From Octopus vulgaris (lineage: Eukaryota), in assembly GCA_951406725.2 (NCBI GenBank), contig OX597815.1:93186001-93250000 (forward strand): DNA of 64,000 nucleotides, written 5' to 3'. Position numbers and translations under genes: made by a program. The notes under the pieces are model-generated. The model was not told the DNA's origin. It did not search any database and saw only the letters and a list, made by a program, of their open reading frames with translations. Below, in pieces: positions 339 to 49,976 of the stretch (within the stretch, counting starts at the first letter, position 1; each line of letters opens with the position of its first letter).

Positions 339-594
339 CATCTAAGTCGGCACTTGTGCGCGTCCCTGCAGCAGATGATACTTTCAAAATTGGAACCGGT
401 TTAAGTGCAGACATTGGAACAAGACCTTGACTAGACTCTTTCACCTCGGTAGGTAATGTACGCACAAGGCACCATTCCGGCTGTCCAGGAGGGCAAACAT
501 CTATTAGTTCTACTTGCTGACCCTTCTGAACACTCAGGTCCCATGTAGATGTAGCTGAATAGTCAACAATGACAACTGTAACATCTGAAGAACA
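339..594 (-). CDS. Trio: Trio exon: first SH3 domain (CSSDVTVVIVDYSATSTWDLSVQKGQQVELIDVCPPGQPEWCLVRTLPTEVKESSQGLVPMSALKPVP...)
   Basis: ttgcag acceptor and GTAAGT donor; 256 nt, phase 0/1. SH3 motifs VIVDY, L.V.KGQ.VELI, PEWCLVR and GLVP are typical of Trio/Kalirin SH3-1. Confidence 0.93.
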
Positions 595-1057
595 CTGCAA
601 TAAATAAATAAATAGATAAATAAATAAATGAATAAAAGTTAATTAAATTTTAAAAATCACTTTCAATAAATACTTAAAATATATAAACCTTAACATGTTT
701 CTAAGAATCACAAGAATTCCTAAATTTGGTCTTGTTGTTGCTGTGTTGTTCTATGTTGGTCATGATCATACAAACCTTTAGCAAGCAATGAGTCAGTCAA
801 ATGACTAACAATGACTGGCAAATGTCATGTTCCGAATATATAAATTTGGTGTTTTAACCTGTAGTGATCCTTTAGTGAACCATTACTACTAACACTCCAT
901 AATGTGTCTTAAATTTTAAAGTATAGTCAAACACTATAATGTTTATTGATATTCTATGGTTGTGTTTAAAAAGTGATTTAACAAAAAGTTGTCACATAAA
1001 ATAGGTATGGGAGTTTGAATCTACTCAACTCTCACATTATTACACATGTCCTTGGCA

Positions 1058-1270
1058 TCATTTAATGTCTGTTTTTCATGCTCACACAGGTTGGATAGAT
1101 TGACAGGAGCTGGTGAGCTAGAGGATTGCACCAAGCTCTGCTGTCTGCTTTCATATGGTTTCTACAGCTGGATGTCCTTCCAAATGCCAGCCACTTTGTA
1201 GAGTATACTGATACTAGAAGCTTCTAACATGGTACCAGCACTGGTGATGTCACCAAGTAAATTACAAGAC
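1058..1270 (-). mobile_element. RTE-LINE-related 3' tail / SINE-like repeat
   Basis: catcatttaatgtc...ttttcatgc...ggttgga...tttctacagctggatg..ccttcc; same family as 16120-16272, 39060-39350, 45070-45246, 46340-46740 and 60154-60450. Confidence 0.7.
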
Positions 1271-1836
1271 AAAAATCTTCTTGACTGAGAGGGGGAGTAG
1301 TTTTTTTTGGGTGGGGGTGGGGGGGTGATGAGAGGTTAAATTATGAAAGTGGGACAGAAACTGGTGTCTTGCTCTAGAGGAGATACATTGCTACTTCAGT
1401 CAGCGGAGTAGGTGGAGGGTGAGAGGAAGTGGGGGTGGAAAGAAGGCAGTGAAGATGTGCCAAGATGTACTTTCAAGGTACAAAAAGGTGAATGCAAGTG
1501 GAGTGTAACAGAGTACTGGACAGGATAAATGAATAAGGAATTCACAAGAGTGTGAAACATGAGTAGAAGACGGAAGAAAAGGAATGGAGTGAGTGGTGAA
1601 CAGGGGTATGTAAGGGAATAGTAGGATAGCAATGAAATAGTTGGGAGGGGGGGGGGGGGGGTAAAGTGTCACTGCACTTCAGAAAAAGTGGGGTAGAGAA
1701 ACAAACAGTGCACAACGAGATTTAGTTTGCTTCATTGGTGTAGAAAGATTTAACGTAATGCGTGGGTGGGGAACACATAATACACAGCACTGCCTGAACT
1801 CAGTTTTGCTAAGGTGGGAAGGTATTTTCAAGAACC

Positions 1837-2060
1837 TCACATCACTAAACATCTCAGTCCACTGTCATCTTTGTGAAGCTTAACATTGAAACTGGCCCTC
1901 ACTATTTCATCCCATGTCTGTCTGGGTCTCCCTCCCACTTTAAGTGATTGGCACTTTTTCATACAGCTGTCCTCATTCATATGTACTAAATGACTAAACC
2001 ATTGTAGTCTTCTCTCTTGCATGTTACATCTAATTCCTGGTATGTCTAACTTTTCTCTCT
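1837..2060 (-). mobile_element. RTE-clade LINE, decayed C-terminal ORF fragment
   Basis: QERRLQWFSHLVHMNEDSCMKKCQSLKVGGRPRQTWDEIV matches the RTE C-terminal RRLRW.GH..RM...GRPR.TW motif. Confidence 0.8.
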
Positions 2061-2896
2061 AACAAAGTATTAATTCACAGATAACAATTGGAATACTTGC
2101 ATGGTTTTAGGTATGTTCTTATCAAAAGTATTACCTTTATATTGTATGTAAATTTGTGTGTGTGTGTGTGTGTGTAACAATTCTCCCAATTATCTGTGCC
2201 ATGTCAAAGTGACCTGCATGTCTTGTTTAACATAAGAACAACTTACAAATGCCATCTTTGAAGAGAGACATCTCTATTTAAAAAAGACCAACATTTGACA
2301 GCTGGCACTAAATCTTATACAATAGATGATATAAGATACAATAATGGTACATTTACAATTCCTTCAGATGTCTGACAGTTGTTTAAGTTATAGTTACACA
2401 ACATTAAGCACAAAAAAAAAGATTATTTTCCTCTAGGAACAATTGCGTATATGAAGTTAGTTTTCTCAATTCTAAATGGAGAGCATAAAGTGATTAACAA
2501 AATAAACCCATAATTTCACAGACATAAATAGAAACATATTTACAAAACAATGTACATAGGCATATGTAAACAAACATATTTACCTAAATATAATGTACAC
2601 ATACATGGATACACTTACACACACACACACTGATATTCACTAAGTTTTCATTTACCATTGTAGTAAAATACATTTTTAAAACTGCAACTATATTTTCAAT
2701 ATATTCTTTGATTGCAGTAGCGATTCTTATTTGTAGTTACAATTTACTGAAGAAAAAAAGGCTATGTACAAATGTGATGACAGTTATTTTGTTTGTGTTT
2801 GAGAGAGAGAGAGAGAGAGAGATGTACACACACACATAGCCAAATCTCCTTCATATGAGACTTTATTGAAAATAAAAACAAGGAAGGACACATTAA

Positions 2897-3118
2897 CCCT
2901 TTTGTTACCATATTTCTGTTGAAATACATTGCCTTTGTTTCAATAAGTTTGAAAGTAATGAAGAACTTACAACATTAATTTTGACTTTATTAAGCTGGTG
3001 TTTGGAACATAAATTAGCAGGAAATTGTTGATGGCAATATTTAATTAAGATCAATTTAAAATAGGAAGTTTGTATCAAAGAACTAGGTACGGTTTCAGGT
3101 GCAACTGTATGAAAAGGG
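2897..3118. mobile_element. piggyBac-like MITE
   Basis: TTAA|CCCTTTT...AAAAGGG|TTAA. Related copies at about 25985-26233 and a split copy at 19864-21205. Confidence 0.75.
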
Positions 3119-5294
3119 TTAAATGATGTTGTCCTACTTACATATACTACGACTGAATCAAAGACATGAAGGTTACTGTTAATGGCTGCTGGATCAGGTC
3201 TGATGAGGGACTAAACAACAGAAACCCAGCCAAAATCACCCCACCTCATTACACACTGTAGTATAGCTGTGTGACAACTCTAAGTATTGTCAGTGTAATG
3301 TTGTGAAGAGACTTAATGGTATTGATCATGTAAGCCAATATTTACATATTTCGGCTGACAGCCAGAATTAACCAATAGTGTGAGATTTATGGTGATGTGT
3401 ATTTTCACTAACTCTACTTAATGTTTGGGAACATGCCATAAGCAGGGTGGGCGGGGGATAATGCTGAGAGAGAGGAAGAGAGAGAAAGAGGAAAAGAGAG
3501 AGAGAGGAGAGAGATTCAAACATTTAATACTCTTACTTTAGGTCTGGATGTCAAAATTTAATACATTTTATTCTGAGATTAAATCATAATACTGCAAACA
3601 CTCACATGCACACAAATGTCAGTATGTAGATGTATCTGTATAGACAGACACATATACAGAATATGTTTGTAACACACAAAGTTACACACCCTAATGACCA
3701 GAAGTCCTAACTTTCAATACATGAGTGCAGAGAGGGGATAGTTTGGCAAATTTTGTAGGGTGAGGCATAGTTCATTAAACTTTTTTATCAACCTGAATAA
3801 GCTGCCAAACTACATTAAACTTTTTTATCAACCTGAGTAAGTGCGAATGCCAAGTTTTGGTCTGGTAGGATTTGTATATGCAGTAATCACACACACACAT
3901 ATAAATATGATGATGGAAGTCAACTAAATAATGATTATGACTATTGCTTATTAATGAGTTACAACATAAATTTTTAATTGATGCTTTGCAGCTTCAGTCA
4001 CAACTGCTACATATATATCTCTTCTCAGTTTAACACAATGTAGAATGATGACAATTGGTGTTGTGTACAAACATAAGTATTTCTAGACTGCCTCCAGACA
4101 AACAATGTTTAGAACATGGGTAACTCTTTCAGGTGGTGATGATCTATTATTAGCTTGCTTTGTTTCATATAACCTTGAATAACTAACAAGACCAGCCTTA
4201 CAAAGACACACACACACAATTTCACCTCCCCCAACACACATAGTAACATCAGTTGATGTTGTACAGTTTCTATTGACAGATTCCACTCATAAAACATTGG
4301 TCAGCCCGAGTCAAAATAGTTGAAGACATTTGCCCACAGTGCTACGCAGTGAGAACAAACCTGAAAGCATATGCTTTCCTAACTTGTTGGGTCCTTTGTG
4401 TACAGAGATAGCAATTCTGAAGAACTGAGGTTGGAGCATGCTTTTGAATGACTTTATGCCAATCAATCAAATGGCTCTTTTCTGGGTACGGTCTAAGATG
4501 TTTGTGCATATGTCAGCAACACTGTCCCACTTCTCCATTAAGGACTAAAATATCTTCTAGCCCTTATGAGAAAGAGCTAGTTAATGAAATGCAGTCTTAC
4601 TAATGTTAAGGATGCGCTTCTGCCAAGAGGGAATCACAAGATAGTGAGACCTAACAACTGGACTTGAACTGAGTGCTACTTATGATGGCGAAGAAATGTG
4701 GTACAATGCTGTTTTCTTGATAAAAGCAGATTTTTCCTTACTATTGAAAGAGACAAGACTGGCACATACCTAGTGAAAGATGTTTTCAAAATCTGTTTAT
4801 CGAACCAATGGGTTTGGTATGTTGTGTTTAGGTTACAAGTGGATAATACATGGTTAGAGAATATTAAGGATAAAGAAAAGTAATATCATCTGCATAAGAG
4901 TGGAAGTTGTTTGCTGAGGCAGTATGTTACTGACACATAAAAGGAAGAGCAAACTCTGGGGTAAAGTAGAGTTGATAGAATGAGTGATAGAAATATTCAG
5001 CAACAATGCAATCTAATAGGAAGCTACTGATCAAAGAGATAAGATACAGATGGAGACCAGAAGCAGAAAGTTTTAAAAGGAGCTTTGCATAAGACATCAT
5101 GAAAACTCTGGGGATGACAATATTTCTCCCCCCCCCCCCCAACAAGAGCCCTATGGATAGGTGACAGACGAGAGTAGGTCACCAGTGGATCAGGCTTTAT
5201 GAAAATCACACTGGTGGCATGAGAGAGAGAGTGAGAATGAGAGAGATTCAGAATATTGGAAACATTTATAATGGCTGATTCCATTACCTTATAT

Positions 5295-5811
5295 CAGGGG
5301 TCACCAAACTTTTTTCACAATGGGCCAGATAACTGAGAGAATGACGAGTGCAGGCTGCATAACTATTTTGTTCAATACAATACAGTAAATACACAAAAAA
5401 TAAAGACAACCAACATATCTATTTACCAAAACGTTATCAAAGAAGGCAACGATAGCAATAAGATAGTTATATCATACCCAGTGCACACATACCTGAATCT
5501 CACAAACTAAAACAGCAAAAAAGGTGAGATTTGTGAAACTGGTGTTTAGCTCTTAAGATAGCATCAATATTTGCTTTGGAATTGCTGCATCCAATCAAGA
5601 GAATTGCTTTCAAATGTTCATCAGTCAACCTCGTTTGATGTGCTGACTTCACATACTTTATTTTTGAAAATGTTTGCTTGCAGACATAAGTTGTTGCAAA
5701 CACTAATGCCATACCAGAGGCAAATGAACTTTGCAGGTACTTACACAAAAGATGCAGTACAGTGGCGGGCCGGATGAACTGACCACACGGGCCATAGTTT
5801 GGTGACCCCTG
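5295..5811 (-). mobile_element. Non-autonomous hAT (Charlie/SPIN-like) element retaining a transposase C-terminal fragment
   Basis: 16-bp TIRs CAGGGGTCACCAAACT / AGTTTGGTGACCCCTG; 8-bp TSD ccttatat/ccttagat. Minus frame FATTYVCKQTFSKIKYVKSAHQTRLTDEHLKAIL is a hAT dimerisation motif. Confidence 0.9.
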
Positions 5812-7597
5812 CCTTAGATACATTAGAAATAAGTGCAATAGGGAATAGTTAGCAAGGTCAGAGGGTTATTTTTCTTGGAGATGTTATGGATGTGCACATA
5901 TTTTACAAATGAAAATGAAATTTGGAAAAAAGCAAATTTCTGCACATAGCTAAAGCAAAAATTTAGAGGAAATATTAGTTACAAGGGTTTTGTAGTATTA
6001 ATATATCTATGGTATAATATATACATAAGTATAACTGTATGTAATGGCTTAGTAAAATTAGTTCTTTTCTAGTTACTTTATGCCAAGGTCAAGTTGCCTC
6101 TTTTTTCTTTCTTTCAAGATTGATAAAATAACTACCAAAGTACTGGGCTGTGATATAATCAACAAAAAATTCCTTAATGGCACCACCCCAGCTTGGCCAC
6201 AATCCAATGATTGACAATAAAAGAAACACACACACACACACAGAAACGAGCCAATTTGTGTGGAGATCTTTCTACAAAGAAGAAAAATGTTCTGTTTCAT
6301 TGTTGCTTTAATCTTTACAGAAAATCTAATTGAAATAATTGCTGCCTGTTATAAGAAGAAGAGAAGTAAACCACATTGGCTGGGAGAAGAACTCATGGTT
6401 TAAGCAACAAAAAGAAAGAACAAAGAAAACCAAACTGATTTAGAAAATAATATATGGTTCAAGTAAGTAGGTCATGAGAAAATATTAACTCTTGACTAGA
6501 CACAACTCCAGTAGTTTCTATATCCTGTAGTACAAGCCAATCAGAGAGCTGCTACACACAATGCAAATCTACAATACCTTACAATCATAGGAAAGAAAAC
6601 AGCATATGGATAATATGGACCAACATATACGTCTAGAAAGGCAGGATAATCATGGCCAGAATGCCTTTGATTAATAGGTCTGTTCAATTGAAATTGATTT
6701 GTGGCTTAAACATCTACTACAGAATTTTTCCTATATCTCTATTCTACCCACTGTAATAATATGGATAGATTTATGTCAAATCGTATGAAATGTAACAAAA
6801 TAATATATTGTAACATTAACATAAGTTACAGGGTTGAATATAGGTAATTATATCAACCACAGCAATTAACTAGTATTGGTACTTGACTCTTGAAGAATGT
6901 AAGGTCAACATGGTCCCAGTTTATACCCAGAATACAAAGATATCTAAAAACATATTGCAAGTCCTTCTGTTCAGTGCTCTGTTGAGTCTGTCAATCCAAA
7001 ATATAAAGGTAGGGTCACTATGTCTCACACTAACATGAGATTTGGGCCTATGATATACGTATCTTACAAACATCAGTAATATAAATTGAGTGAAGCGTAG
7101 AGGCCAAACTGGGCCAAGACTGATAAAAACAAGAGGTTGAGGATAAATTACGAAATATTTATTACTCAGTAGCAGTGAGTTAAATGTGTTGTACAACAAT
7201 TTCAGATTAAAGGAAGAGTGTGGGTCATGCTGGACAGTATCCACATAATAGGACTCTTCTACAGTGGCAATATCAGTTCACTTGAAGCTTAACTTGAAAT
7301 TTCTGTAAAAGAAGTACTGAATAGCAAGGTGTTAAAATGGGCAGGAGAAGGACACTGCATTTCTAGGGAAGAAAGTTTTGTCAAAGAGTTTAGAAAGCAG
7401 GAAGGATTAATACACTAGTAAAATAACATAAGAAAGAGGCATTATCAGGTTACAATTATATCTAGTAAAAAGGGTTAACAATGGTCCACAAAAGAAATCC
7501 ACATAGAGTATCATTATCCAGTCTACTTCCAGTTAAATGGTGTGATTTCTATTGTACTTAGTGGTATTGCTGGCTATGATATACAGAGCAAATATAG

Positions 7598-7888
7598 GAA
7601 AAAGTATGATAAACACAAGATGCAGTCTATACTATTTGTTCCCTATGTATGTTTTGTCATTGTAACTATTTGCATCTTCTGCAGTGGCTGTTCATAGTGC
7701 AGTTAGATGCAGATGTAGATTTCCAATAGTTCATCACCCTATTACATTATCTCCTGTCAACATAATCTAATAAAGTGTTCCTTTGAGGAACTGTTGGAGA
7801 TCTGCATCTGTGTCTAACTGCACTACGAACGTCCACTAATAGCAAAACGTATGTAAGGAACTGCAGCTTGTGCTTATCATACTTTTTC
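7598..7888. repeat. Old fold-back (MITE-like) inverted repeat
   Basis: 7598-7736 is an imperfect, gapped reverse complement of 7784-7888 (gaaaaagtatgataaacacaagatgcag ... ctgcagcttgtgcttatcatactttttc). Confidence 0.7.
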
Positions 7889-8295
7889 ATACATACGTAT
7901 GTGTACACACACATCTATACTTATAGACAGACAGATATTAATCATCATTTTAACGTCCACTTTCCATGATCACATGGACTGGATGGAATTCATTGAGATA
8001 GGATTTCTATGGTTGGATGCCCATCTTGTCACCAACCCTCACTTGTCCCCAAGTAAGTTAATATTTCGCTATGGCTGGACATATTTCCACAGAAGATTAG
8101 ATACGAAAGACATTACAACTATCACAGAATGTCAAAATTAGGAGACAATAAAACAAACACACACACACAAACAAGCTTCTTTCAGTTTCTGCCTATCAAA
8201 TCCACTCACAAGGCTTTGGTTGTCCCAGGACTTATTGTATGAGCTCAAGGTTTGTTTTCAAAAAACTGCCGCTGTTGCTTCTGCTATTACCATTT

Positions 8296-8387
8296 CTGCT
8301 GCTGCTGCTGCTGCTGCTGCTACTACTACTACTACTACTACTACTACTGCCATTGCCACCACCACTACCACCTGTACTACTACTAAT
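8296..8387. repeat. (GCT)n/(ACT)n compound trinucleotide microsatellite
   Basis: Directly visible. Confidence 0.9.
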
Positions 8388-9011
8388 AATGACGATAATC
8401 TAATGAGTATAAAAACTAGTTAGCATTTGTGTGTGGTAGAAATATTGACTTTATAAAGATCTAAAAGTATTTACTAACAAAACGTGAAAAAAAAAAAAAA
8501 ATTCAACTAAATAAAATATATGAAAGGGTTGTGAAGAGAGTATGATCTCTATCATCATCATAATCATTGAAAGAATGAGCTGGTTGGTAAAGCAGAACAG
8601 AGAAGCCAATTCATTTGTGAAAGATATGTAAGGGAGTATAATATTTACACAGCAGAACATAGTCTCTTTCTTTCTAACTCCCCACCTTCTCTCCCATTCT
8701 CTTGCATGCACGCACGTGCGCACACATGTACACACACACACACATGCACGCACACATGTACACACACACACACATGCATGCACGCGCGCACACACACAAG
8801 CAGTTGCAGAAACTATTTTGTTGAACAAAAACTCTGTCCTAACTTGAAGTCAGGAAATGATTGGCCAAAGATATAATCCCCGCCTGAAGTCTTACTAATG
8901 AAATTACAAGAAAGATAATCATAATAAGTACTTTATGTAGGAAACCTAATAGCACACAAGTGATGTTAACCAACATATCAACATTACAGGAATATTCTTA
9001 CTATATCTCTT

Positions 9012-9048
<37 letters not shown>

Positions 9049-10010
9049 CTCTCAGTATCTCTCTCTCTCTCTCTTTCAATTTGTTGCTGTCTCTTCCATT
9101 CTCTCTCTCCATCTTGCTCATTCACTCTAACTTGCTCTCACTCACTCAATATCTATCTCACTTTTCCTCCACTCTCTTTATGAGATTTATTTCTCAAAAG
9201 AATTTCTAGGCTCAACTGTTTCTTTTGTTATTTCTCAAAAATAAAAGTAAATATAAATAAATAAAAAAAACAAAACTGAAGTCTGTAAACAGAGAGTCCA
9301 TTGATTCTGCGACAATATTTATAGAACAACAGTGGGTGTAGTGGGAAGAGGATGAAGGTAAATGGCTGACATGGCTTCCATATTACTTACCGATATAGAT
9401 TATTGGATATTAGAAACAAGTCTCTTACAAAGAGTTGATTACATAAAATTTCAAAAATATCATTCTTTTATTGTGTTCATTTTTTCAGTCACTTGGTGCT
9501 GCCTTTGAAGGTTTTAGTCTGTTAATAATGTCAAATGTAATGGGGTCTGGAAACTTATTTAATTGATCTAGGAAGGTGGTAAAGCAATGTCTGCCTGGGT
9601 GATATCTGAACTTGGATCATAAAGGAACATAAACAAATACCACAAAGTAGACTGCCATCCATCTGCCCAAACACAGATATTTTTTAACTAAAGGCTTGTT
9701 GAGTGTATGTACATATATTTATGCGTGTGTACATGTGTTTCATAAACAACGGAAAGAGTATACATGATGTATATTCATTTGTATGACATTAGTGATTTAC
9801 TGTCACTAGTCAAGGTTTCCCTCTTGAAGTAGTCTTTCAGGCGAAAGGCCTTGAAGTCCATTGTTGTCTGGATGACTGTATCAAGTGAGAAACTGAATAG
9901 TAATCGAGTGAGTTACCAGCAGTATGTCAGAGTATGTGTGAATAACTGAAATGTGTTGACATATGAGACAATAATACTCAATACCAATTTGTGAGAGTTT
10001 TAATTTAACT

Positions 10011-10340
10011 CAGTGTTTCTCAACTGGGGTCCATATAAGATTTAAGGGGGGGGGTCCACAAAATAAAATAGTAAATTGGGGTTTCACAATAAGTATTTGC
10101 AGAGCCCTTGAAAAAGTTTTGTTGTATGTATTGATATGTATTGCAAAGGAAACAGTTAGGCTTCCTTCTCTAACATTTTACATAGTTCGTCCTAGAGAAG
10201 TCAATGTGTGAAAAACAAAATAGGAATTTGGAAGAAGCATCCATAAAGCTAGTTTTTAAACATTGAATGGCTATGGGGGGAGCGGGGGTTCCACCAGAAT
10301 AAAATAGTTACCAAAGTGGTCTATAGGTTGAGAACCCATG
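10011..10340. mobile_element. hAT-type MITE
   Basis: Imperfect TIRs CAGTGTTTCTCAAC / GTTGAGAACCCATG; degenerate 8-bp TSD atttaact/atttgaca. Confidence 0.6.
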
Positions 10341-11081
10341 ATTTGACAGAATCAAAAGTTAGGATTCAAAAACCTTAGGGTAGCTAAAATTTGTTTCATC
10401 TAATTACATTATACTGCATAATCACATTCATCAAACTTTTAGCCTCTAACAGACTGTCTTCTTTTTTCTGTTCTGGAGTAAACTGGAGCGGAAAAAGGTT
10501 ATTTTAAAGACAGTGACTCAACCATTTTTTACCAATGGATTCTTTTTATTCCTAATTCACTTGGGCAGACCCTCATAGCCATTCAATGTCTACAAAGTCC
10601 CATTATATTTTTAGAATTAAATAATATTTGGAAAAGTACAGAAAAAAGGTTAAAATATTTAGTGTATTGTAGAATTATAAGCAATTTATTGCACCTAGAT
10701 TTTAATAACAAAAAAATCTTATATGGACTCTGATTGATAACTACTGCTCTAAGAGAAACTAAAAGTCTGATGAATATGGTTCTGCAGTATAGCATAAATT
10801 ATGTGAAACAAATTGTATCCACCCTGTACCATTGAATCTCAGCTTTTGTGTTTTCATTCCTTTTCACACACGCACATATCATTTAAGTATATATGAGCAT
10901 GTCTAGAAATACAAGTATATGCATGAGAAGACATACATAAAACAAAACATACAAACCTACACATATAAATTCCAATGAAGAAACCTTGGATCTAGGTTAG
11001 AAACCAGCCCTTTCTCTATTTTCAAGAAATCTTGAACTTAACAACTGAATAATGACATACATACATACATCCATACATACT

Positions 11082-11119
<38 letters not shown>

Positions 11120-11429
11120 TGCACGTGCATGCATGTGTGTATGCATGCATGTATGTGCACACATATACACATATATTCAAATATACAACCAATGGGCTTC
11201 AGTACATTATCCATCTACTAAATTTCACTCATATGGTATTGGTCAACTGGAAGCTATGGTAGGAAGATACTTGTCCAATAAACTGTGTAACAGGATCAAA
11301 GTTGGAGCTACATGATCGTGAAGTGAACATTTATTTTTTTTTCTTTTTGTTTTGGTAACCAGTAATTAGGTAAAAGAAGAAGGGGTCTTATTTAGGCTCA
11401 CAACAGTCAAAAGCATAAAAATAAAATAT

Positions 11430-11860
11430 TTTTGAAGATTCTTTTAACTAGGAATTGGTCTTTTCAACAGTTGTCCTCTTCTGCAGCTTCCATCCACTTT
11501 AATCACTTGGTACTTCTTTGCTCAACTGTTATCCTTCATACGTATTACATGACTATACCAGCTCAGTCTTCCTTCTTACACATTACAAGTGATTCCTGTT
11601 ATACTCAGTTTCTCTCTTACCTCCCTCTGTTGTTCAGACACAGTAACACTACACATCCAACAGAGAATGCTCACCTCATTTTCTTTCACCTATTGCATAT
11701 CCTTTCATTCAATGCCATTATTTTGTTGCCAAGCAACCTTGCACTTATTACACAAGAATCATGCAATCTACCTTTCACTCAAAGAGAGAAAACTTTCATA
11801 ACCAGCAGAAGTAATAAATAATGTCCAAACTTTTCCTAACCCATTCTTGCTCGGGCTAGT
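11430..11860 (-). mobile_element. RTE LINE C-terminal remnant
   Basis: Minus frame RRLSWYSHVIRMKDNS*AKKYQVIKVDGSCRRG, with stop codons. Confidence 0.65.
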
Positions 11861-12416
11861 GTGCTTTCATAGAAAGAAATAAACATCTTTCTATTTGTCT
11901 CTCTCTTAATATATAAAGATACATACCCTACCCCTTATATAAATATGTGTGTATATATTGTGTTTGTCAATAAAAATATATTCAAATATCTATTACTGAT
12001 ATTGAATTAATGATGATTAAAATGTAATTGAATCAAAATCTTATTGACTATACAGCATACACCAATATGTAACTCTAAACCTATTCTCCGGTAGTTACGA
12101 TAATTAAAATGTGTCTACAACAGTTCACACACACACACATGGTGAATACTTGGTTGCTGCTATTGTCACTCCACAATACTTTTTTTTTTTTAATTTGTCT
12201 TTAGACATTATCAATAATTAATTTAACTAAAAATCACACACAAATATATATATATATATAAAAACAATAAAATGATAAAGAAAAATAAACTATGTTTTCT
12301 TTTTATATTGAATTTTCTTCTAAAAGAGATAAGGTTATTCAGAAATAATTATCATATTTCTGTAGAATAGAATTAGAGTTTCTATATGAAATAAATAGCA
12401 GCAACAATAGCGTTAA

Positions 12417-13230
12417 TGATGATGATGATAAGAAATCTCTTTATTTTTGCCACAAAGATGGCAGACCAGTAAGCATTACAGGGACACACAAGAGGGTTTA
12501 AATAGAATATGAATGAAATAGGGGTGGGGACAAAACTCCAGTATGTACAATATATGCATACATGAGGCAGTCCCATGAGCAGGACTGCCACATAGGTCTG
12601 ATTAAAAAACTCCACTGATTCAGGATTCCCTAGGCTACCAAAGTGTGTGCCCTCTCCTAGCTGTTCTCCTGAATCTAACAGGCCCATTCACTAGGGCTAT
12701 GCACACTACCCTCACTCACCTTTCAACAAATTTAAGAAAAATAGTATCAGCCTCTTCATCTTCACTTTCCTCTCCAAGAAGGATTAGAAGTCAATATTGA
12801 TAAAGGTTTAGCTGATGAGGAAAATGTCTATCCTCAGTCCTTTCAATCATGTCCATCACATAAAGCTTTTCACCACAGCCACCAGACAAAGGTAGATTGC
12901 TTGTTCTTGGTTAATGGAAAGCAGTAAGAGTTTGTCCTAAAAACAACAGCTGTGCGACCTTACACTGCAAATTAGCAATGCTATGTCACTGAATGAGCAC
13001 AAGCAAAATAGTTTCATCATGTAGCACATATCTGAGACGGTCCCGGCGGGTGGCACTTATGCTGCCCATCTGCATCTGCTGCAGTTTCAGGTTAGGGATT
13101 TCTGGAAGATATCTAAAGTTCCTAGTTCAAAGTCCTTCTAGAGATCTTTCAGCAGAGGAATTGAAAAACCTCTGGAACAGTCCAGCTAGTTGGTTTTTGT
13201 TGATGCTAAGAGTTTTCCCACCTATATAGA
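12417..13230 (-). mobile_element. L1/Tx1-type LINE 3' end (zf-RVT/C-terminal region plus 3' UTR), decayed
   Basis: Frameshifted minus-strand peptides DETILLVLIQ*HSIANL, AIYLCLVAVVK..*WT*LKGL and KFVER. Ends in AATAAA followed by an (ATC)n tail. Confidence 0.6.
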
Positions 13231-13938
13231 AAACTGACATGTAAGTTTACACTGGTCGCATTGCCTAACTGTTATGGAGTGTGAGTACCTGATAACATTT
13301 TAGATGCCAGATGCTAATATTGTTTCATTGTAGGGAGGAAGCAATAATTTTTTACTGATTTTGATGAACATCAATACTGCACTTCTACTTATTTTATTAA
13401 CAACTTGGGAGGAAATAAAGGTGAAGTTGTCACAACTTAAAATTATAACTTTCTTTAAAGCAATGAAACCTTAAGACTGTAAATGATATGGAACTGTGTT
13501 TTAGAGAAAAACAGAACAGAAAAAAAAAAACTTCTACTTTCAACACAGAAATTAACACTATACAACTATATCCTACTTCAGACAATAATAATGGTGGTGG
13601 TGGTAATAATTTCCTATATGAATCAAACCCCACACATTTGTGGAGTGGGTAAAGCTAACTCTGGGCAAATTAAACCCGAGTCTCTGTTGAAATCAGAATA
13701 TGATGGTAAATATCTAAATATATCAAAGCATTTAGCTTGACAGTTTTCTGTAACTACAAAAACAATATTGAAAATATCAAACTTTCAAAAGTTTTTAAAG
13801 AGTTATGCAAACCTAAATTAGAAATATGTTTTCCCTAAAGTCACTTATGTTTTGGTTAAATTAAAGTTAATTTCATAGATTTAAATCCTTTAGTATCAAT
13901 GCAAACATTTCATTAATGAAATCCATAAAATAACATAC

Positions 13939-14025
13939 CAAGACATTGCTATCGGTGCCATCATAGCTCTCAGCTCTTTTATCTCGCACTTTTTGTTTCC
14001 AATGTAATAATCGAAAAAGCAACAT
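13939..14025 (-). CDS. Candidate alternative first coding exon of a short Trio isoform (MLLFRLLHWKQKVRDKRAESYDGTDSNVL)
   Basis: ATG with G at -3 and an in-frame TAA four codons upstream; 29 open codons ending at TTG|GTATGT in phase 0, matching the SH3 exon. Lies in non-repetitive sequence that retains CpGs. Confidence 0.5.
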
Positions 14026-14450
14026 TCCCAAATATTAGACAGTCATCCTCTTTTTGTGAAATCAATTAAATATCCGAGAATAGATTCCAGTGTAGTCCAA
14101 CACAAAGTTGTTTGCCAAGTGATAATTCAAGAAGAGAAAAATGTCATCCCACTCAAAGCTGCATCTGTAGAGATCTCTCTCTCTCTTTTCTTTTTAAGTC
14201 CATTTTCTGGAGAAAGTTTTCTTTTTAATTTAGCAGCTGACCACAAGAAGCATCACGAATCAATCAGTCTGTTATTATCAACACAGGCAGAAGCAAATAT
14301 TTGACAAAGTCAATAAAATATAATCGATATGAATGTGTTAAATACAGATCTATAATGGGACAAGCACATTCACTGGAGTGAACAGTAAGACGAAGTAAAA
14401 ATGTCAGACAGAGACTGAATAAAAAAACTTATACCACGTATACATTAGAA
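14026..14450 (-). promoter_or_regulatory. Putative 5' UTR/internal promoter of the candidate short isoform
   Basis: No recognisable transposon sequence; several retained CpGs directly upstream of the candidate exon. No TSS can be determined from sequence. Confidence 0.3.
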
Positions 14451-15121
14451 TTGAACTATTACAACAGCGATGACAACTCCTGACACTAAGGCTGCAGTGT
14501 TTAGAAAATTTTCTTAGTATGATGAGAACAGGAAAATTAGCAAAGCAAGCTGATACTTTCAATGTCTGAGTGAAGAATGGTCTGCTGGTTGTATAATGTC
14601 TATTTATACCTGAATGTAGCAGCTGTTTGCTACAGGAGTTCTACTATTTATCTGCCACCACTGTTTTAGTATAGCAGAATGAGTGAATGAGAAAGAAATG
14701 CTACAACACAGAATCCCTTTATAATCTTAACCACCCCGCTCACCATCACCATTTGCAATTTGAGCTTAAACATGAGGGAATGAAGATATGTGTAAAGAAC
14801 AAGAAATATGGGCTGAGAGTGTTAGTGTTGAATGGATATAATGGAATTTGGGTGAATATTTCTTTCTAAAAACTTTAGTAGTCTTTCAGCACTATGGTAA
14901 CAGGTAGTAAAGGAGTTCAATTCTTGGAGTGTAACAATATATAAATATATAACATAATAATTATTAAAGAGAAAGAGAAATAAAAGATATGAAATAATAA
15001 CAAATGCACACACACACCATTATCATGCCAGCATGCAAAAAACAGATGTAAAAGCAATGATAATGTGTGTGATGTGTGAATATGTATACACACATACATT
15101 ATATACATACACACACACGTT

Positions 15122-19863: not shown

Positions 19864-20064
19864 CCCTTTTGATACCAACCCAACTGAGAGCATCACCCCT
19901 AGTTCTATCAGACAAACTTTCTGGTTTAAAGTGATCTAAATTCATATTTCCCATTAAAATTTCATGTTATCAGCTTAATAAAGACAAAGTTATTTTACTT
20001 TATTGCTGTATTTCAGGGTGGTCATTTTATTTATTATTATTTTTTTTTTCCAAATAAACAAATG

Positions 20065-20113
<49 letters not shown>

Positions 20114-20565
20114 CTTCACTCATTTATTACTGTTATTTCAATGCTCGCCCATTGTCTGGAAATCTTTCGTCACACATCTGTAACCTCCATTCTGTTCTTC
20201 TAAGATGAGTATCCTTATGTGAGCATGCGTTTGTGTCCTTGTTTGTATCTGCATATGCTTGTGTGTGTGTTCTCCTCAGCCCCAAACATACACAAAAACA
20301 AGGATATAAACGCATGTGCACATAAGGAGACACATCATAGAAGAACAGAATGGAGATCACAGATGTGTGACGAAAGATTTCAGGATAATGGACGGGCATT
20401 AAAATAACAGTAATAAATGAGTGAAGAATATATATATGAAAAATAACGACGCGGGACTCTGTCGAGGCGAATTAATATATATATATATTTTATCAATTTT
20501 TCAAAAACTTTTCCATTAAAATTTTCTTTCAATTTAGCATTCTGCCTTTTTACAATTTTTCCTTG

Positions 20566-28985: not shown

Positions 28986-30148
28986 TTATGAAGACAGACA
29001 GACATAGGTATACACACACACACCATCATCATGATATTATGTCCATTCTTTCATGCTGGCATGAGTTTGATGGATTGTCAGGTCACCCTCCAGAACATAA
29101 TACTGGCAAACTCTGGCACTGTTTATATCTTACAGTGAAGACTGGGGGTATCTTATCATACATACAAACATACATATTTTTACTGAAACATACACACATA
29201 CACAAAAATTTAAAATAAAACAATAAAAAATAAAAATCCCATACATACTCATACACATACATATATACATACATACATACATACATACACAAGCATTGCA
29301 ATGTGTGTAAGGAAAGTAAAAATAAATAAAGCAGCTACCTAGGAGGTGTGTATTTCCTTTTCCATGTACCGGTGCCAAGTAGATTACATTGATGGCTGAA
29401 GACTCCTACAGACACCTGAGAACAACAGTGGTGCTGAATCTTCACTGCTAGACTGAATATCTTACGACCAGTGAGTGAGAGAATGAGAGAGGGGGTAACA
29501 GTGGAGAACATAGAAGAAGCATAACGCTGTTATCGTAGCTGTTTGGTGAACAAAACAGTGATCAAAGGTTTTCCGACCAGGAAAACACTGATTTAGTTTT
29601 CTGACATAGGATATCTATGACAATATCATTATACAATGTGTCCCTTTTAAAATATAGAAGGTTATGATTTCAGGTAGATATGGCTGCTGCTTCTAGTGGG
29701 CCAAGTGACTGTATGGAGGCACCCTTATCAATTCACAAAATGAAGATAATCACAGATAAGAGTAAATGTCTCTCACAGTAGAGAGACATTGAAAGGAGAT
29801 AAATAACAGGTGCAAGGAGTACTGTTGTGGGAAAGAGTAGCAACAAGTGAACAACAATACACAGATAAAATTCCCACTGTGTCCATTCAAAGCTTATAAG
29901 CAGCGGAAGAAAATCAATAATGTTTCCATTTAACCCAAAACAAATCAGCTTGACATGTGCAATACTGTAACATTTTATCAAGAAATTCTAACTTCAATAT
30001 TCATTGACACAAAGGAAGTTTGACAAATGAAAAAATTTATATTTTCATCATGGCAAACCAAAGCATATTCTATATGAATACAAGTATAACTACAGTTGTT
30101 ATAAACAATGAATTGAATAGAGTTTTTTTAATCATATATATATATATA

Positions 30149-30318
30149 CAGATATTGTTATATTTCGGAATCGTCATTTTGCCAGTTTAGCCAATAACAA
30201 CACACGCACTATATATTTGGTGTTACTTTGCTTCAGTGTTATTTATTTTTTACATTAATCTTAATCTTGTTATTGGCTAAACTGGCAAAATGACGATTCC
30301 GAAATATAACAATATCTG
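30149..30318. mobile_element. MITE with perfect 52-bp TIRs (Tc1/mariner-like, TA target)
   Basis: CAGATATTGTTATATTTCGGAATCGTCATTTTGCCAGTTTAGCCAATAACAA at 30149-30200 and its exact reverse complement at 30267-30318; the left flank is (TA)n. Confidence 0.88.
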
Positions 30319-30368
30319 TTTCAACACACGACTTCACATAAAAAATCTTGCACAACAAATATATAAAC

Positions 30369-30413
<45 letters not shown>

Positions 30414-31330
30414 TATGCACATGTATACACACACACAATGCATATATCTGTAAATATCATAATTTTAACATCCATCTTACCATGTTAGTGTGTGGTCAGA
30501 CAATAAACTTAGGAGAAGCAAATATTTCTACAACGCTGTCACTATATGTATTTCCACATTCATAGAAGTGACAACGTTTATATGAATGACTTCTCATTTA
30601 CAATCAATAAGTACATGTTAGGACATGAGGATTACATACATAGTGACAGAGATAAAAAAAAAACCTAGATACATGTAAGTATATAAACAAACAGACAGGC
30701 AGAGATATACACACACACACACACACAGAGTTTTCATACTGAGTTATAACAAAAACAATTCTACAAAAAACTGAAGGCTTACTCTATGCTTTTTGTAGAG
30801 CACAAATTTATTACTCTAATGCATACTGACAATGATTTCAAAGTTTCAGCCAGCTTAGCTATCATCAGAATGACACACACACTACCCCCACTGCCACCAA
30901 ATTACCATTGAGTTAACAGTTACTTTTCTATGCTTTTACAAGTCAGGTGAAATTTATTGAGGGAGATTTTCTATGGCTGTTTGCCCTTCTTTTTTCCAAC
31001 TTACACCAATTTTCAAGTACAGTTATGTTGCTCCTAACCCTTTGAACATGAAAAGTACAATGGCCTGACATATTTTCTCAGAAGATTGCAAACAAACAAC
31101 AAAACTTGTATGATGGTAATGTCTCTCTGCAATTAGTGTATGGTGCCAAGAGAGGAAGTGCATGTGTATACAACAGACCTCTTTCAGTTTAATATATAAC
31201 AGGAGAGTCCATCATATATACATACACACACACAATGTGAACTATGAGCACATGTGAAATAGACTTTTCCCAATCCTCAGGTAGATGTATGTAAAAATGT
31301 ATTGGTATGTATGTGCATACATATGTACGT

Positions 31331-40896: not shown

Positions 40897-41251
40897 TCTC
40901 TCTCTATATAAACGGCAGTTTGTCTGTGCGTTTTCTGTGTGTCTGTTTTCCCGTACCCTCACTCTGACCACGGCTTTCAACCGATTCTGATGAAACTTGA
41001 CACACACATAGCCCAATGTCATAATTCAAAACTAACGCAGCGAAAATTTTGAAAAGTTCCCCCAGTTCTGAAAAAAATCGATAAATTCGACATGGGGTCG
41101 AGAATCAGAAACCCAAACCACAGACCGTCTAGGGGACGCAACTCCACCTTTTTTAACTCTCAAAAAAAATTTACCATCATTTTTTTCCCATTTTTTTGCT
41201 ATTTTTTGGCTATAACTCTCTAAAAATGCTTTATAGTTATTTCCCTTACAA
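40897..41251 (+). mobile_element. 3'-truncated non-autonomous Helitron-like element
   Basis: A|TCTCTCTCTATATAAACGGCAG start, (TCTG)-like repeats, aaccgattctgatgaaactt core, CpGs intact. No 3' hairpin or CTRR; flanked by a 32-bp direct repeat. Confidence 0.65.
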
Positions 41252-42194
41252 ACCTGTAGCAAACATTTTGTCTAATCAGCTATTTAGTTATAAAATTATA
41301 TCAAATGGTTGTATTTTGACATTGTCAACATTTGATCAGGCGATTAAGGTTGGACTAAATCCGTTGCAGAAATTGGATGGTCCTAACTAGTCAATCGGTG
41401 TTTGAGCAACAGTTTTTATCCTAATGCAGAAAAATTCTCTTCCTGACTGCCAACCGTTATATAAGAAACACTCTAGAGATGAGATCACAAGCCAAACAGA
41501 TGTCTTTCCATGAACTATGCTACCTAGAACACAGAACCATGCAGTCCAGCATACAGAACCAAGCCATGAATTACCAAACCAGTTACTTATCAATATGTAA
41601 GACATTTGCCATGTAATTTTCAAAACAGTTACATTGAATTTAGCTGGTTCTTCTTATCATTAGTCTTTCTACAAGACTGGATATGAGAGACTTTGCTTGT
41701 AATATGGTGATGCTTGTTTATAATTATCTCATGATTTCAAGAAAAAGAGACACAAATACACACATATATGCACATGTATAAACACATATATACACATGAC
41801 AAGGTTTCTTTCAGCTTCCATCTGCTATATACACCCAGAAAGCTTTGGTTAATCAGTGGTTATAAATGACATTTGCTTAAGGTTCTACACAATTGGACTG
41901 AACATGAAACCAAACCATGTGGTTGGAAAGTGAACTTTTTAACTACCCAACCTTATATATATGCAAAAATGCTTATAAATATATTCTGACTAATGATATG
42001 TATGAAAATAGGTTAATGTAGAATGAAGACTTAAATGAATATAAAACATTGTTTTCTAAAGTTATGTACAATGTATACTCATTATAAAAAAGTACTATTC
42101 TAAAGTGATGTAGACTATTCACTATAAAATACACTATCTACTAAAACGTAGAATTGTGTATGCTCACATATGCTGTATCCTAAAGTGATGTAGA

Positions 42195-44479: not shown

Positions 44480-44609
44480 TCTGTTGCTGCTGCCACTGCT
44501 ACTGCTACTGTCTGTTGTGGCAGTGGTGGTGTTGGAGTTTACTGACACCAGACTAGCGCGACGTTCAATATGGACTTCATCTAGAGATGCTGTGTCACTT
44601 TCCATATCC
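44480..44609 (-). CDS. Trio: Trio exon: Ser/Thr-rich PH1-SH3 linker (DMESDTASLDEVHIERRASLVSVNSNTTTATTDSSSSSGSSNR)
   Basis: tttgtcag acceptor and GTAAGA donor; 130 nt, phase 2/0. It exactly bridges the phase-2 end of the previous exon and the phase-0 start of the SH3 exon. Confidence 0.9.
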
Positions 44610-48671: not shown

Positions 48672-49152
48672 TCAATATCTATAAAGCTGAAATGCGAAAA
48701 ATTTGTTTGTCTCATTTTGGGATGGGAACGGTTTAAGGGGCGGTAGATGGGGTCGGATTGGCTTCAAAATTTACAGGGACATGTAAAAAGAGGCAAGGAA
48801 GCAACTGGACTAGGTTAGAAACCCCTATCTCAAAAGCTGTGGTTACTAGGGCAACAAAACCCAGACTTTGACAAGTGTTTGTCGTTTTTCTCTTTCGGAT
48901 ATCACTCTGTCTTCCTCGATCTCTCTCTTTCCTTCCTTCCCTCCACTTTCTCTTTGTAACGATGTTTGACAGCTTCGTCTCTCTGTCACTCTTTCTCCCA
49001 CTACTTCTGTCTGTATCTATAGAGAGAAAGCGTTGACAGCCGCAAAAGTTTAAATATTCTCGCCACAGGTCTTTTAGAATGGTGAATTATTATCGCCCAC
49101 CACCACCGCACAATCATAACAGATATTATTAATCAGATATATTGTGTTAATT

Positions 49153-49183
<31 letters not shown>

Positions 49184-49976
49184 ATATAAATATATATATA
49201 ATGTGTATACATAATTATATGTGTATATATATAATCATCAATATCTATAAAGCTGAAATGCGAAAAAGTTGTTTGCTTTCTTGGTTATTTGTCTCATTTT
49301 GGGATGGGAGCGGTTAAAGGGGCGGTAGATGGGGTTGGATTGGCGCCAAAATTTACACGGGTGGGTGGGTAAAATGGGGTGGGCAATGGTGTGAGGAGGG
49401 TTGCAAGTCGCTCGGGGCTTCTGTTTGCCATGGTGAGGAATATGGGAAAAATTGAGTTTTATGGGATAGACAGGTTGCACTGTTTGAATAATGGTGGCTT
49501 TTCATGTTGCTGCAGGGGCTAGAGGCAGTTATCTTTAATTATGGGTGTAAAAATTTGGGGGATTTTGGAAGTGGGGGTAAAAATTTTCAACTTTTAAAAA
49601 GAGTACATTTTTGCCCTATTTTTAGATTTACTTTTTTTCTGTTTGCATTATTTGGCTGACATGGGTAAAAATGGCATTGTGTTAAAGGCCAAAATTTTAG
49701 CTTTCATTTGCATCATGAACCATCAAAATATACCAGAAAAAAGTATCAAATTTCACAAAATTTTAAGTAATTTTGGATTATGTGATTTTATGTGCACGCG
49801 TAAGAGAAAGCGAGGCAAAGTCTGAGAGAAAGGAAGAGTAAGAGAGTGGGAAAGTGAGAGAGAAAGGAGAGAGAAACAAAAGGAGGGGAGAATGTATCGA
49901 TAAGAAACAGAAAGGAAGCAACAGAAAGTAACAATCATACCCTCACCCATGCGTAGAGTGGGTCACCTTAAGCTAG
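48672..49976 (+). mobile_element. Composite non-autonomous Helitron (two 5' ends, one 3' end)
   Basis: TCAATATCTATAAAGCTGAAATGCGAAAAA at 48672 and 49238; 3' hairpin-like cccatgcgtagagtggg then CTAG|T at 49973-49977. Confidence 0.75.

Follow-up and report, generated by a model that had tools for sequence, protein, structure and literature searches.

The two halves of Trio act on Rac and RhoA, and flies, worms, and mammals adjust the balance between these outputs through internal starts. In the case of Kalirin, the Duet promoter lies after SH3-1. An internal promoter within an intron, it precedes exon 35 and gives rise to GEF2-only transcripts, some with the kinase and some lacking it (Duet 9, Duet 12) (PMC3541206). 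Drosophila Trio M consists of SH3 and GEF2, has a 5' UTR of its own, and is a major form in fly heads (PMC11321036). In C. elegans, which has a single Trio gene, UNC-73E is a short isoform that carries the RhoGEF domain only (10.1101/052019; 10.1101/2021.05.08.443256). Finally, ARHGEF25 (p63RhoGEF) has alternative N-termini that set a membrane versus cytosolic location (PMC5105084).

Here we describe an exon on the minus strand of a 64,000-nucleotide stretch of Octopus vulgaris DNA (hereafter, the window) that probably acts as an internal first exon of Trio and gives rise to a GEF1-less protein composed of a leader, SH3-1, and GEF2, a protein likely to activate RhoA. An earlier note on this DNA had predicted a GEF1-less Trio isoform that begins with SH3; that architecture is already known as Drosophila Trio M and is not a new class of isoform (PMC11321036). 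Like Trio M, the octopus form would lack GEF1, combine SH3 with GEF2, and have a 5' UTR of its own, and its 5' exon, which lies between GEF1 and SH3-1, is spliced onto SH3-1 in both of the contig runs that we aligned. The two differ in that the 5' UTR of Trio M contains an intron whereas the octopus leader appears to be a single exon, and SH3-2, Ig/FN3, and kinase domains may be retained in the octopus form, unlike in Trio M. Duet starts within an intron, as is predicted for the octopus form, and has a different N-terminus. UNC-73E is likewise a short RhoGEF form, and it acts in Galpha-q-Rho signalling (10.1101/052019; 10.1101/2021.05.08.443256). The alternative N-termini of ARHGEF25 also precede a TrioC-type GEF, but ARHGEF25 is a separate gene and undergoes palmitoylation of Cys, whereas the octopus leader has no Cys. 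Since it lacks Cys and is followed by SH3-1, the octopus leader falls outside the lipid-anchored class of the Duet/p63RhoGEF type.

Among the protein clusters examined, there is no arthropod protein that begins with SH3, and none of the papers among the literature matches listed deals with a Trio isoform from molluscs. What is new here is the support for the octopus exon, a leader that is hydrophobic and then basic and is conserved among molluscs, and a TAA codon at the position of a scallop Gln. The SH3-first option is thereby added for octopus in an architecture known from Drosophila, and nothing is overturned. Cephalopod neurobiology gains an isoform-specific exon, a candidate promoter, and a junction with which to probe Galpha-q-RhoA signalling.

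The minus strand of the window contains, at 55450-44480, Trio exons that encode the last part of GEF1 together with PH1 and the linker. The candidate exon therefore sits in the 43.9-kb (~44-kb) intron that separates GEF1 from SH3-1. The SH3-1 exon shared by Trio and kalirin (339..594, minus strand, 256 nt) is entered in phase 0 and left in phase 1, and its CAG acceptor is preceded by a polypyrimidine tract. At 85 of 85 positions, its residues are identical to those of O. sinensis kalirin X4 (residue 1659 onward), so the window is part of an Octopus Trio/kalirin gene. Exons for the linker and GEF2 follow on the same strand, those for GEF2 (C2:93105396-93121783) 65-80 kb downstream. GEF1, SH3-1, and GEF2 are thus arranged in tandem order within one gene, as in Trio and Kalirin. 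The canonical upstream exon, which encodes the linker after PH1 (44480..44609, minus strand), ends in phase 0 and is the competitor for the SH3 acceptor at 594 in full-length Trio. The 120 kb of octopus sequence scanned yielded no exons past GEF2 (beyond residue 2336). All 15 members listed of the 27 in the octopus protein cluster are long forms of 2,578-3,182 aa, and none of five frames derived from the window has an exact match in the protein collection.

The stretch 13939-14300 is present in 20 of the 24 sequencing runs considered. In 14 small contig runs, which come from 4 studies and carry 2 species labels, 0.92-1.00 of the words of this stretch are present; that these runs represent RNA is a guess, none being recorded as such. 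Four of the 24 runs were aligned to 13700-14800, namely the contig runs X1 (organism A) and X7 (organism B) and the raw RNA runs X23 and X24. X1 yields one contig covering 13939-14561 and X7 yields one contig covering 13939-14532, both with genomic letters throughout and no variants, and coverage is absent both at 13700-13921 and above 14587. At 13939, the two contigs end with an identical set of 30 loose letters that equals window positions 565-594, where the SH3 exon begins, and is present as one copy in the window. Therefore, 13939 is joined to 594 at the exact GT and AG. This junction, which the earlier note had predicted, is present in 2 of 2 contig runs aligned, under two species labels and in two studies, and the joined form lacks a GT-AG intron of 13.3 kb (595..13938, minus strand).

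The SH3 side of the junction, at 30 letters, is one below the 31-letter bridging rule, and this length presumably reflects a k-1 overhang at the branch where the canonical exon merges. Ending 30 nt into the SH3 exon, the contigs reveal neither start, strand, nor expression level. The letters at the far end of the X1 contig are ones that we take to be Illumina adapter. Given that the exon is single-copy in its own genome, where the stretch 13900-14450 has a single match, a processed DNA copy is an unlikely source of the joined form. In raw RNA of organism E, a relative, of which ~6% was read, X23 gave 0 reads and X24 gave 1 read, with no junction read. We consider the exon and its junction almost certainly real.

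When the minus strand is re-read, an in-frame TAA (14037-14035) is followed by three codons and then by an ATG at 14025 that opens 29 codons, MLLFRLLHWKQKVRDKRAESYDGTDSNVL, running to 13939. This coding part (13939..14025), which is hydrophobic and then basic, ends in phase 0 at a donor that reads TTG/GTATGT. The frame, stop, phase, and donor are all as the earlier note described them, and the SH3 exon (594-339), to which the frame was said to be fitted across 13.3 kb, does start in phase 0. Under a loose rule, 24 candidates on the minus strand of the window have the same pattern of an ATG leading to a phase 0 donor, and the pattern of frame and donor is therefore at chance level; it is the contig splice junction and the match to a scallop leader that lift this exon above chance. 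Further candidates of this kind with good donor scores are located in the same intron at 38168-38103 and 29511-29416 (minus strand).

The CpG content of the exon had also been cited in its favor. The observed/expected CpG ratio is 0.47 relative to an intron median of 0.17, but 4.2% of 433 overlapping 640-nt windows reach 0.47 and higher values occur elsewhere, so we set this argument aside as weak. In the 500-nt windows at 20001-20500, 30001-30500, 41001-41500, and 49001-49500, the ratio is 0.72-0.88. A search of Rfam gave 0 matches.

At its 5' end, the exon extends beyond the span of 13939..14450 first proposed for it; the 3' bound at 13939 stands, and the X1 contig carries the exon to at least 14561. 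Using TATA and initiator consensus motifs, we located a TATA box candidate, TATAAATA, at 14601..14608 (minus strand), 30 nt above a match to the initiator YYANWYY at 14574..14580 (minus strand), which predicts a start at the A at 14578. The predicted start lies 17 nt above the end of the X1 contig, and the contig ends fall 17-46 nt below it. Four such TATA and initiator pairs outside of microsatellites are present on the minus strand of the 64 kb, and 0 are present on the plus strand. Neither the X1 nor the X7 contig contains an upstream splice joint, and this, together with the TATA and initiator pair, leads us to infer a first exon of ~640 nt (13939..14578, minus strand), with contig support from 13939 to 14561 in X1 and to 14532 in X7. 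Thus, the exon is likely an internal first exon of octopus Trio with a predicted promoter and a start near 14578.

That the exon is instead an internal cassette or cryptic (poison) exon of a long transcript, or that the joined contig is an artefact, is very unlikely in our estimation. A possible acceptor, consisting of an AG and a pyrimidine tract, is present at 14372, the contigs cannot reveal a 5' end, and the overhang amounts to just 30 letters. Against this, both contigs pass 14372 without any upstream joint and reach 14532 and 14561, just below the TATA and initiator pair, the same junction recurs under two species labels in two studies, and a scallop gene model starts with a homologous peptide.

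Several smaller features surround the predicted promoter. An E-box, CAGCTG, lies just above the TATA box (14620..14625, no strand assigned), which is weak evidence given 19 such hexamers in the window, and a short inverted repeat at 14614-14633 surrounds it at a level not above chance. Together with the TATA box, which is one mismatch off the MEF2 consensus, these elements might point to expression in muscle or neurons.

Using the SH3 region as query, we retrieved 24 proteins, including the kalirin-like isoform X1 of the scallop Ylistrum balloti (XP_060073162.1, 1,406 aa). This computed RefSeq model, which was retrieved via the SH3 region and not via its leader, consists of a 23-residue leader, SH3-1, GEF2, SH3-2, Ig, FN3, and kinase, in that order. 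When the scallop leader was compared with all six frames of the 43.9-kb intron, the best score, 58, was obtained at 14046 on the minus strand, while the next site scored 32; 0 of 500 shuffles reached 58 (mean 34, maximum 53). The scallop and octopus leaders are identical at 11 of 23 residues (Karlin-Altschul E ~0.003), and from the ATG at 14025 onward 7 of 16 residues are identical, accompanied by conservative changes. In both animals, the homologous leader meets SH3-1 at one and the same position; GEF2 follows in the scallop model and would follow in octopus, and the octopus leader has 13 extra residues before the junction. A leader common to octopus and scallop has therefore been kept across mollusc classes. 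The conservation of frame and leader outside octopus that had been anticipated is accordingly seen in one scallop gene model. The leader, which had been called novel, already has a homologue in RefSeq.

XP_060073162.1 is the sole protein with such an N-terminus among 164 proteins, as judged with a screening motif that misses some SH3-1 sequences. No second homologue of the leader appeared in word, HMMER, degenerate-pattern, ESM Atlas, or exact searches, all of which are weak for so short a query, and no candidate emerged when the whole 40-codon frame between the two stops was used in a word search, also a weak method. HMMER with 32 residues against 1.84 billion representatives gave 1 match, a repetitive protein without any matched stretch, which we rejected. 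The degenerate leader pattern matched metagenome contigs 12 times, in all 12 cases without Trio context and apparently by chance, and scallop residues 1-100 retrieved only generic SH3 clusters from the ESM Atlas.

The scallop model also bears on the TAA upstream of the octopus ATG. The scallop frame is open from its first Met, whereas octopus has TAA where scallop has Gln, after which Y-L-G-M is identical in both. The upstream ATG at 14046, which aligns with the scallop first Met, therefore opens a uORF of three codons in octopus (M-T-V-stop, in frame, 14035..14046, minus strand). The TAA does precede the proposed start, but the earlier reading of it as a sign of that start overlooked this ATG. 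The TAA is not an assembly error, because both the X1 and X7 contigs contain it. Judging from the alignment, the simplest reading is a recent change from CAA to TAA that would have left the second shared Met as the start.

Cephalopods recode heavily via A-to-I editing, and the stop might be read through or recoded so that translation begins at ATG 14046 as in scallop, which would make the leader 7 residues longer. The alignment of that ATG with scallop Met1 and the identity of Y-L-G after the stop would fit such a scheme, which we nevertheless hold to be highly improbable. Both contigs show genomic letters here, albeit rare variants would escape notice, conversion of UAA to a sense codon requires two edits under the genetic code, and a recent change from CAA to TAA accounts for the same data more simply. 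Neither a local 14-bp stem nor an intronic partner for editing beats shuffled sequences. The stem, a hairpin over the start codon at 14020-14086 (minus strand) that covers the TAA and the main ATG, has a z of -0.84, 40 of 200 shuffles folding equally well, and five other leader windows gave z values of -0.29 to 1.0. The best intronic complement scored -29.7 versus a shuffle mean of -28.1, the shuffles having been scanned with a coarser step.

With the ATG at 14025 as the start, as in the recent-change reading, the exon has a 5' leader of ~550 nt containing 7 upstream ATGs. The last of these is the uORF ATG, which has a purine at -3 and whose stop falls 9 nt before ATG 14025. Translation from ATG 14025 would presumably proceed via leaky scanning past the upstream ATGs. 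It is also conceivable, though unlikely, that the exon is a genuine first exon that acts mostly as a non-coding leader, with uORFs blocking ATG 14025 and the protein starting downstream. The product would then be an SH3-less, Duet-like GEF2 form that starts at the next in-frame Met in octopus, residue 61 within the SH3 exon, or there would be little protein. The 7 upstream ATGs may suppress translation, particularly the one with a purine at -3 and an in-frame stop 9 nt before the main ATG, and a second scallop model, X4 (P0054), begins at a Met within the end of the SH3 exon. Against a non-coding role, 7 of 16 residues from ATG 14025 on match scallop, and the open frame keeps its phase into SH3, as translated sequence would be expected to do. 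More speculatively, the TAA between two conserved ATG positions might serve as a translational switch and the leader might be an ancient, previously undescribed motif for targeting in an SH3-first Trio found throughout molluscs, a proposal that we regard as quite improbable. If it were true, uORF control, read-through, or double A-to-I recoding would set both the production and the N-terminus of a RhoA-activating Trio.

With the exon spliced in frame to SH3-1 and ATG 14025 in use, the predicted product is a GEF1-less protein with a 29-residue leader, SH3-1, and GEF2, of ~707 aa if it ends after GEF2 or ~1,536 aa if SH3-2, Ig/FN3, and kinase are included. The donor that closes the final GEF2 exon (C2:93105396, minus strand) reads CT/GTAA, and read-through of this donor gives an end of the form ...KEL-stop. 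The same end is common to 6 proteins from snails, a nemertean, and Logan contigs, so the short product would be ~707 aa, and by sequence comparison the KEL-stop appears to be a short 3' end that has been conserved in Trio.

The GEF2 of a decapod-like relative (P0107) matches 6D8Z (Trio) with an E-value of 1e-121 and 2RGN (ARHGEF25) with 6e-117, compared with 5e-65 for N-terminal GEF chains. The match to 6D8Z and 2RGN includes a C-terminal ALQSPI-YQ stretch, and the same extension is present in the octopus's own genome. The DH-PH of P0107 is nearest to TrioC/p63RhoGEF and includes the PH extension at its C-terminus. TrioC acts on RhoA, and Galpha-q activates it in any context (PMC9372627). By homology to TrioC and p63RhoGEF, the octopus product would activate RhoA rather than Rac, with exchange that depends on Galpha-q.

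The leader carries a net charge of +5 in 18 residues, and its hydrophobic moment of 0.14-0.39 is low, so it forms no clear amphipathic helix. Since the alternative N-termini of ARHGEF25 set the location of that GEF (PMC5105084), a targeting role for the octopus leader is plausible by analogy. We tentatively suggest that the leader might substitute for the missing Sec14/spectrin half by serving as a tag that targets the protein to membranes or to partners.

Other N-termini ahead of GEF2 came to light among the relatives compared. Of these, three leaders from scallop and one from scorpion were compared with 70 kb of the octopus gene downstream, where none scored above its own shuffles. A scallop cluster (P0054-P0061) contains further GEF2-only N-termini, with Cys-containing leaders in contig proteins, and a scorpion cluster (P0128-P0129) contains a GEF2-only N-terminus with an MGxxxS start. 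The scallop Cys leaders and the scorpion MGxxxS start are suggestive of lipid anchors.
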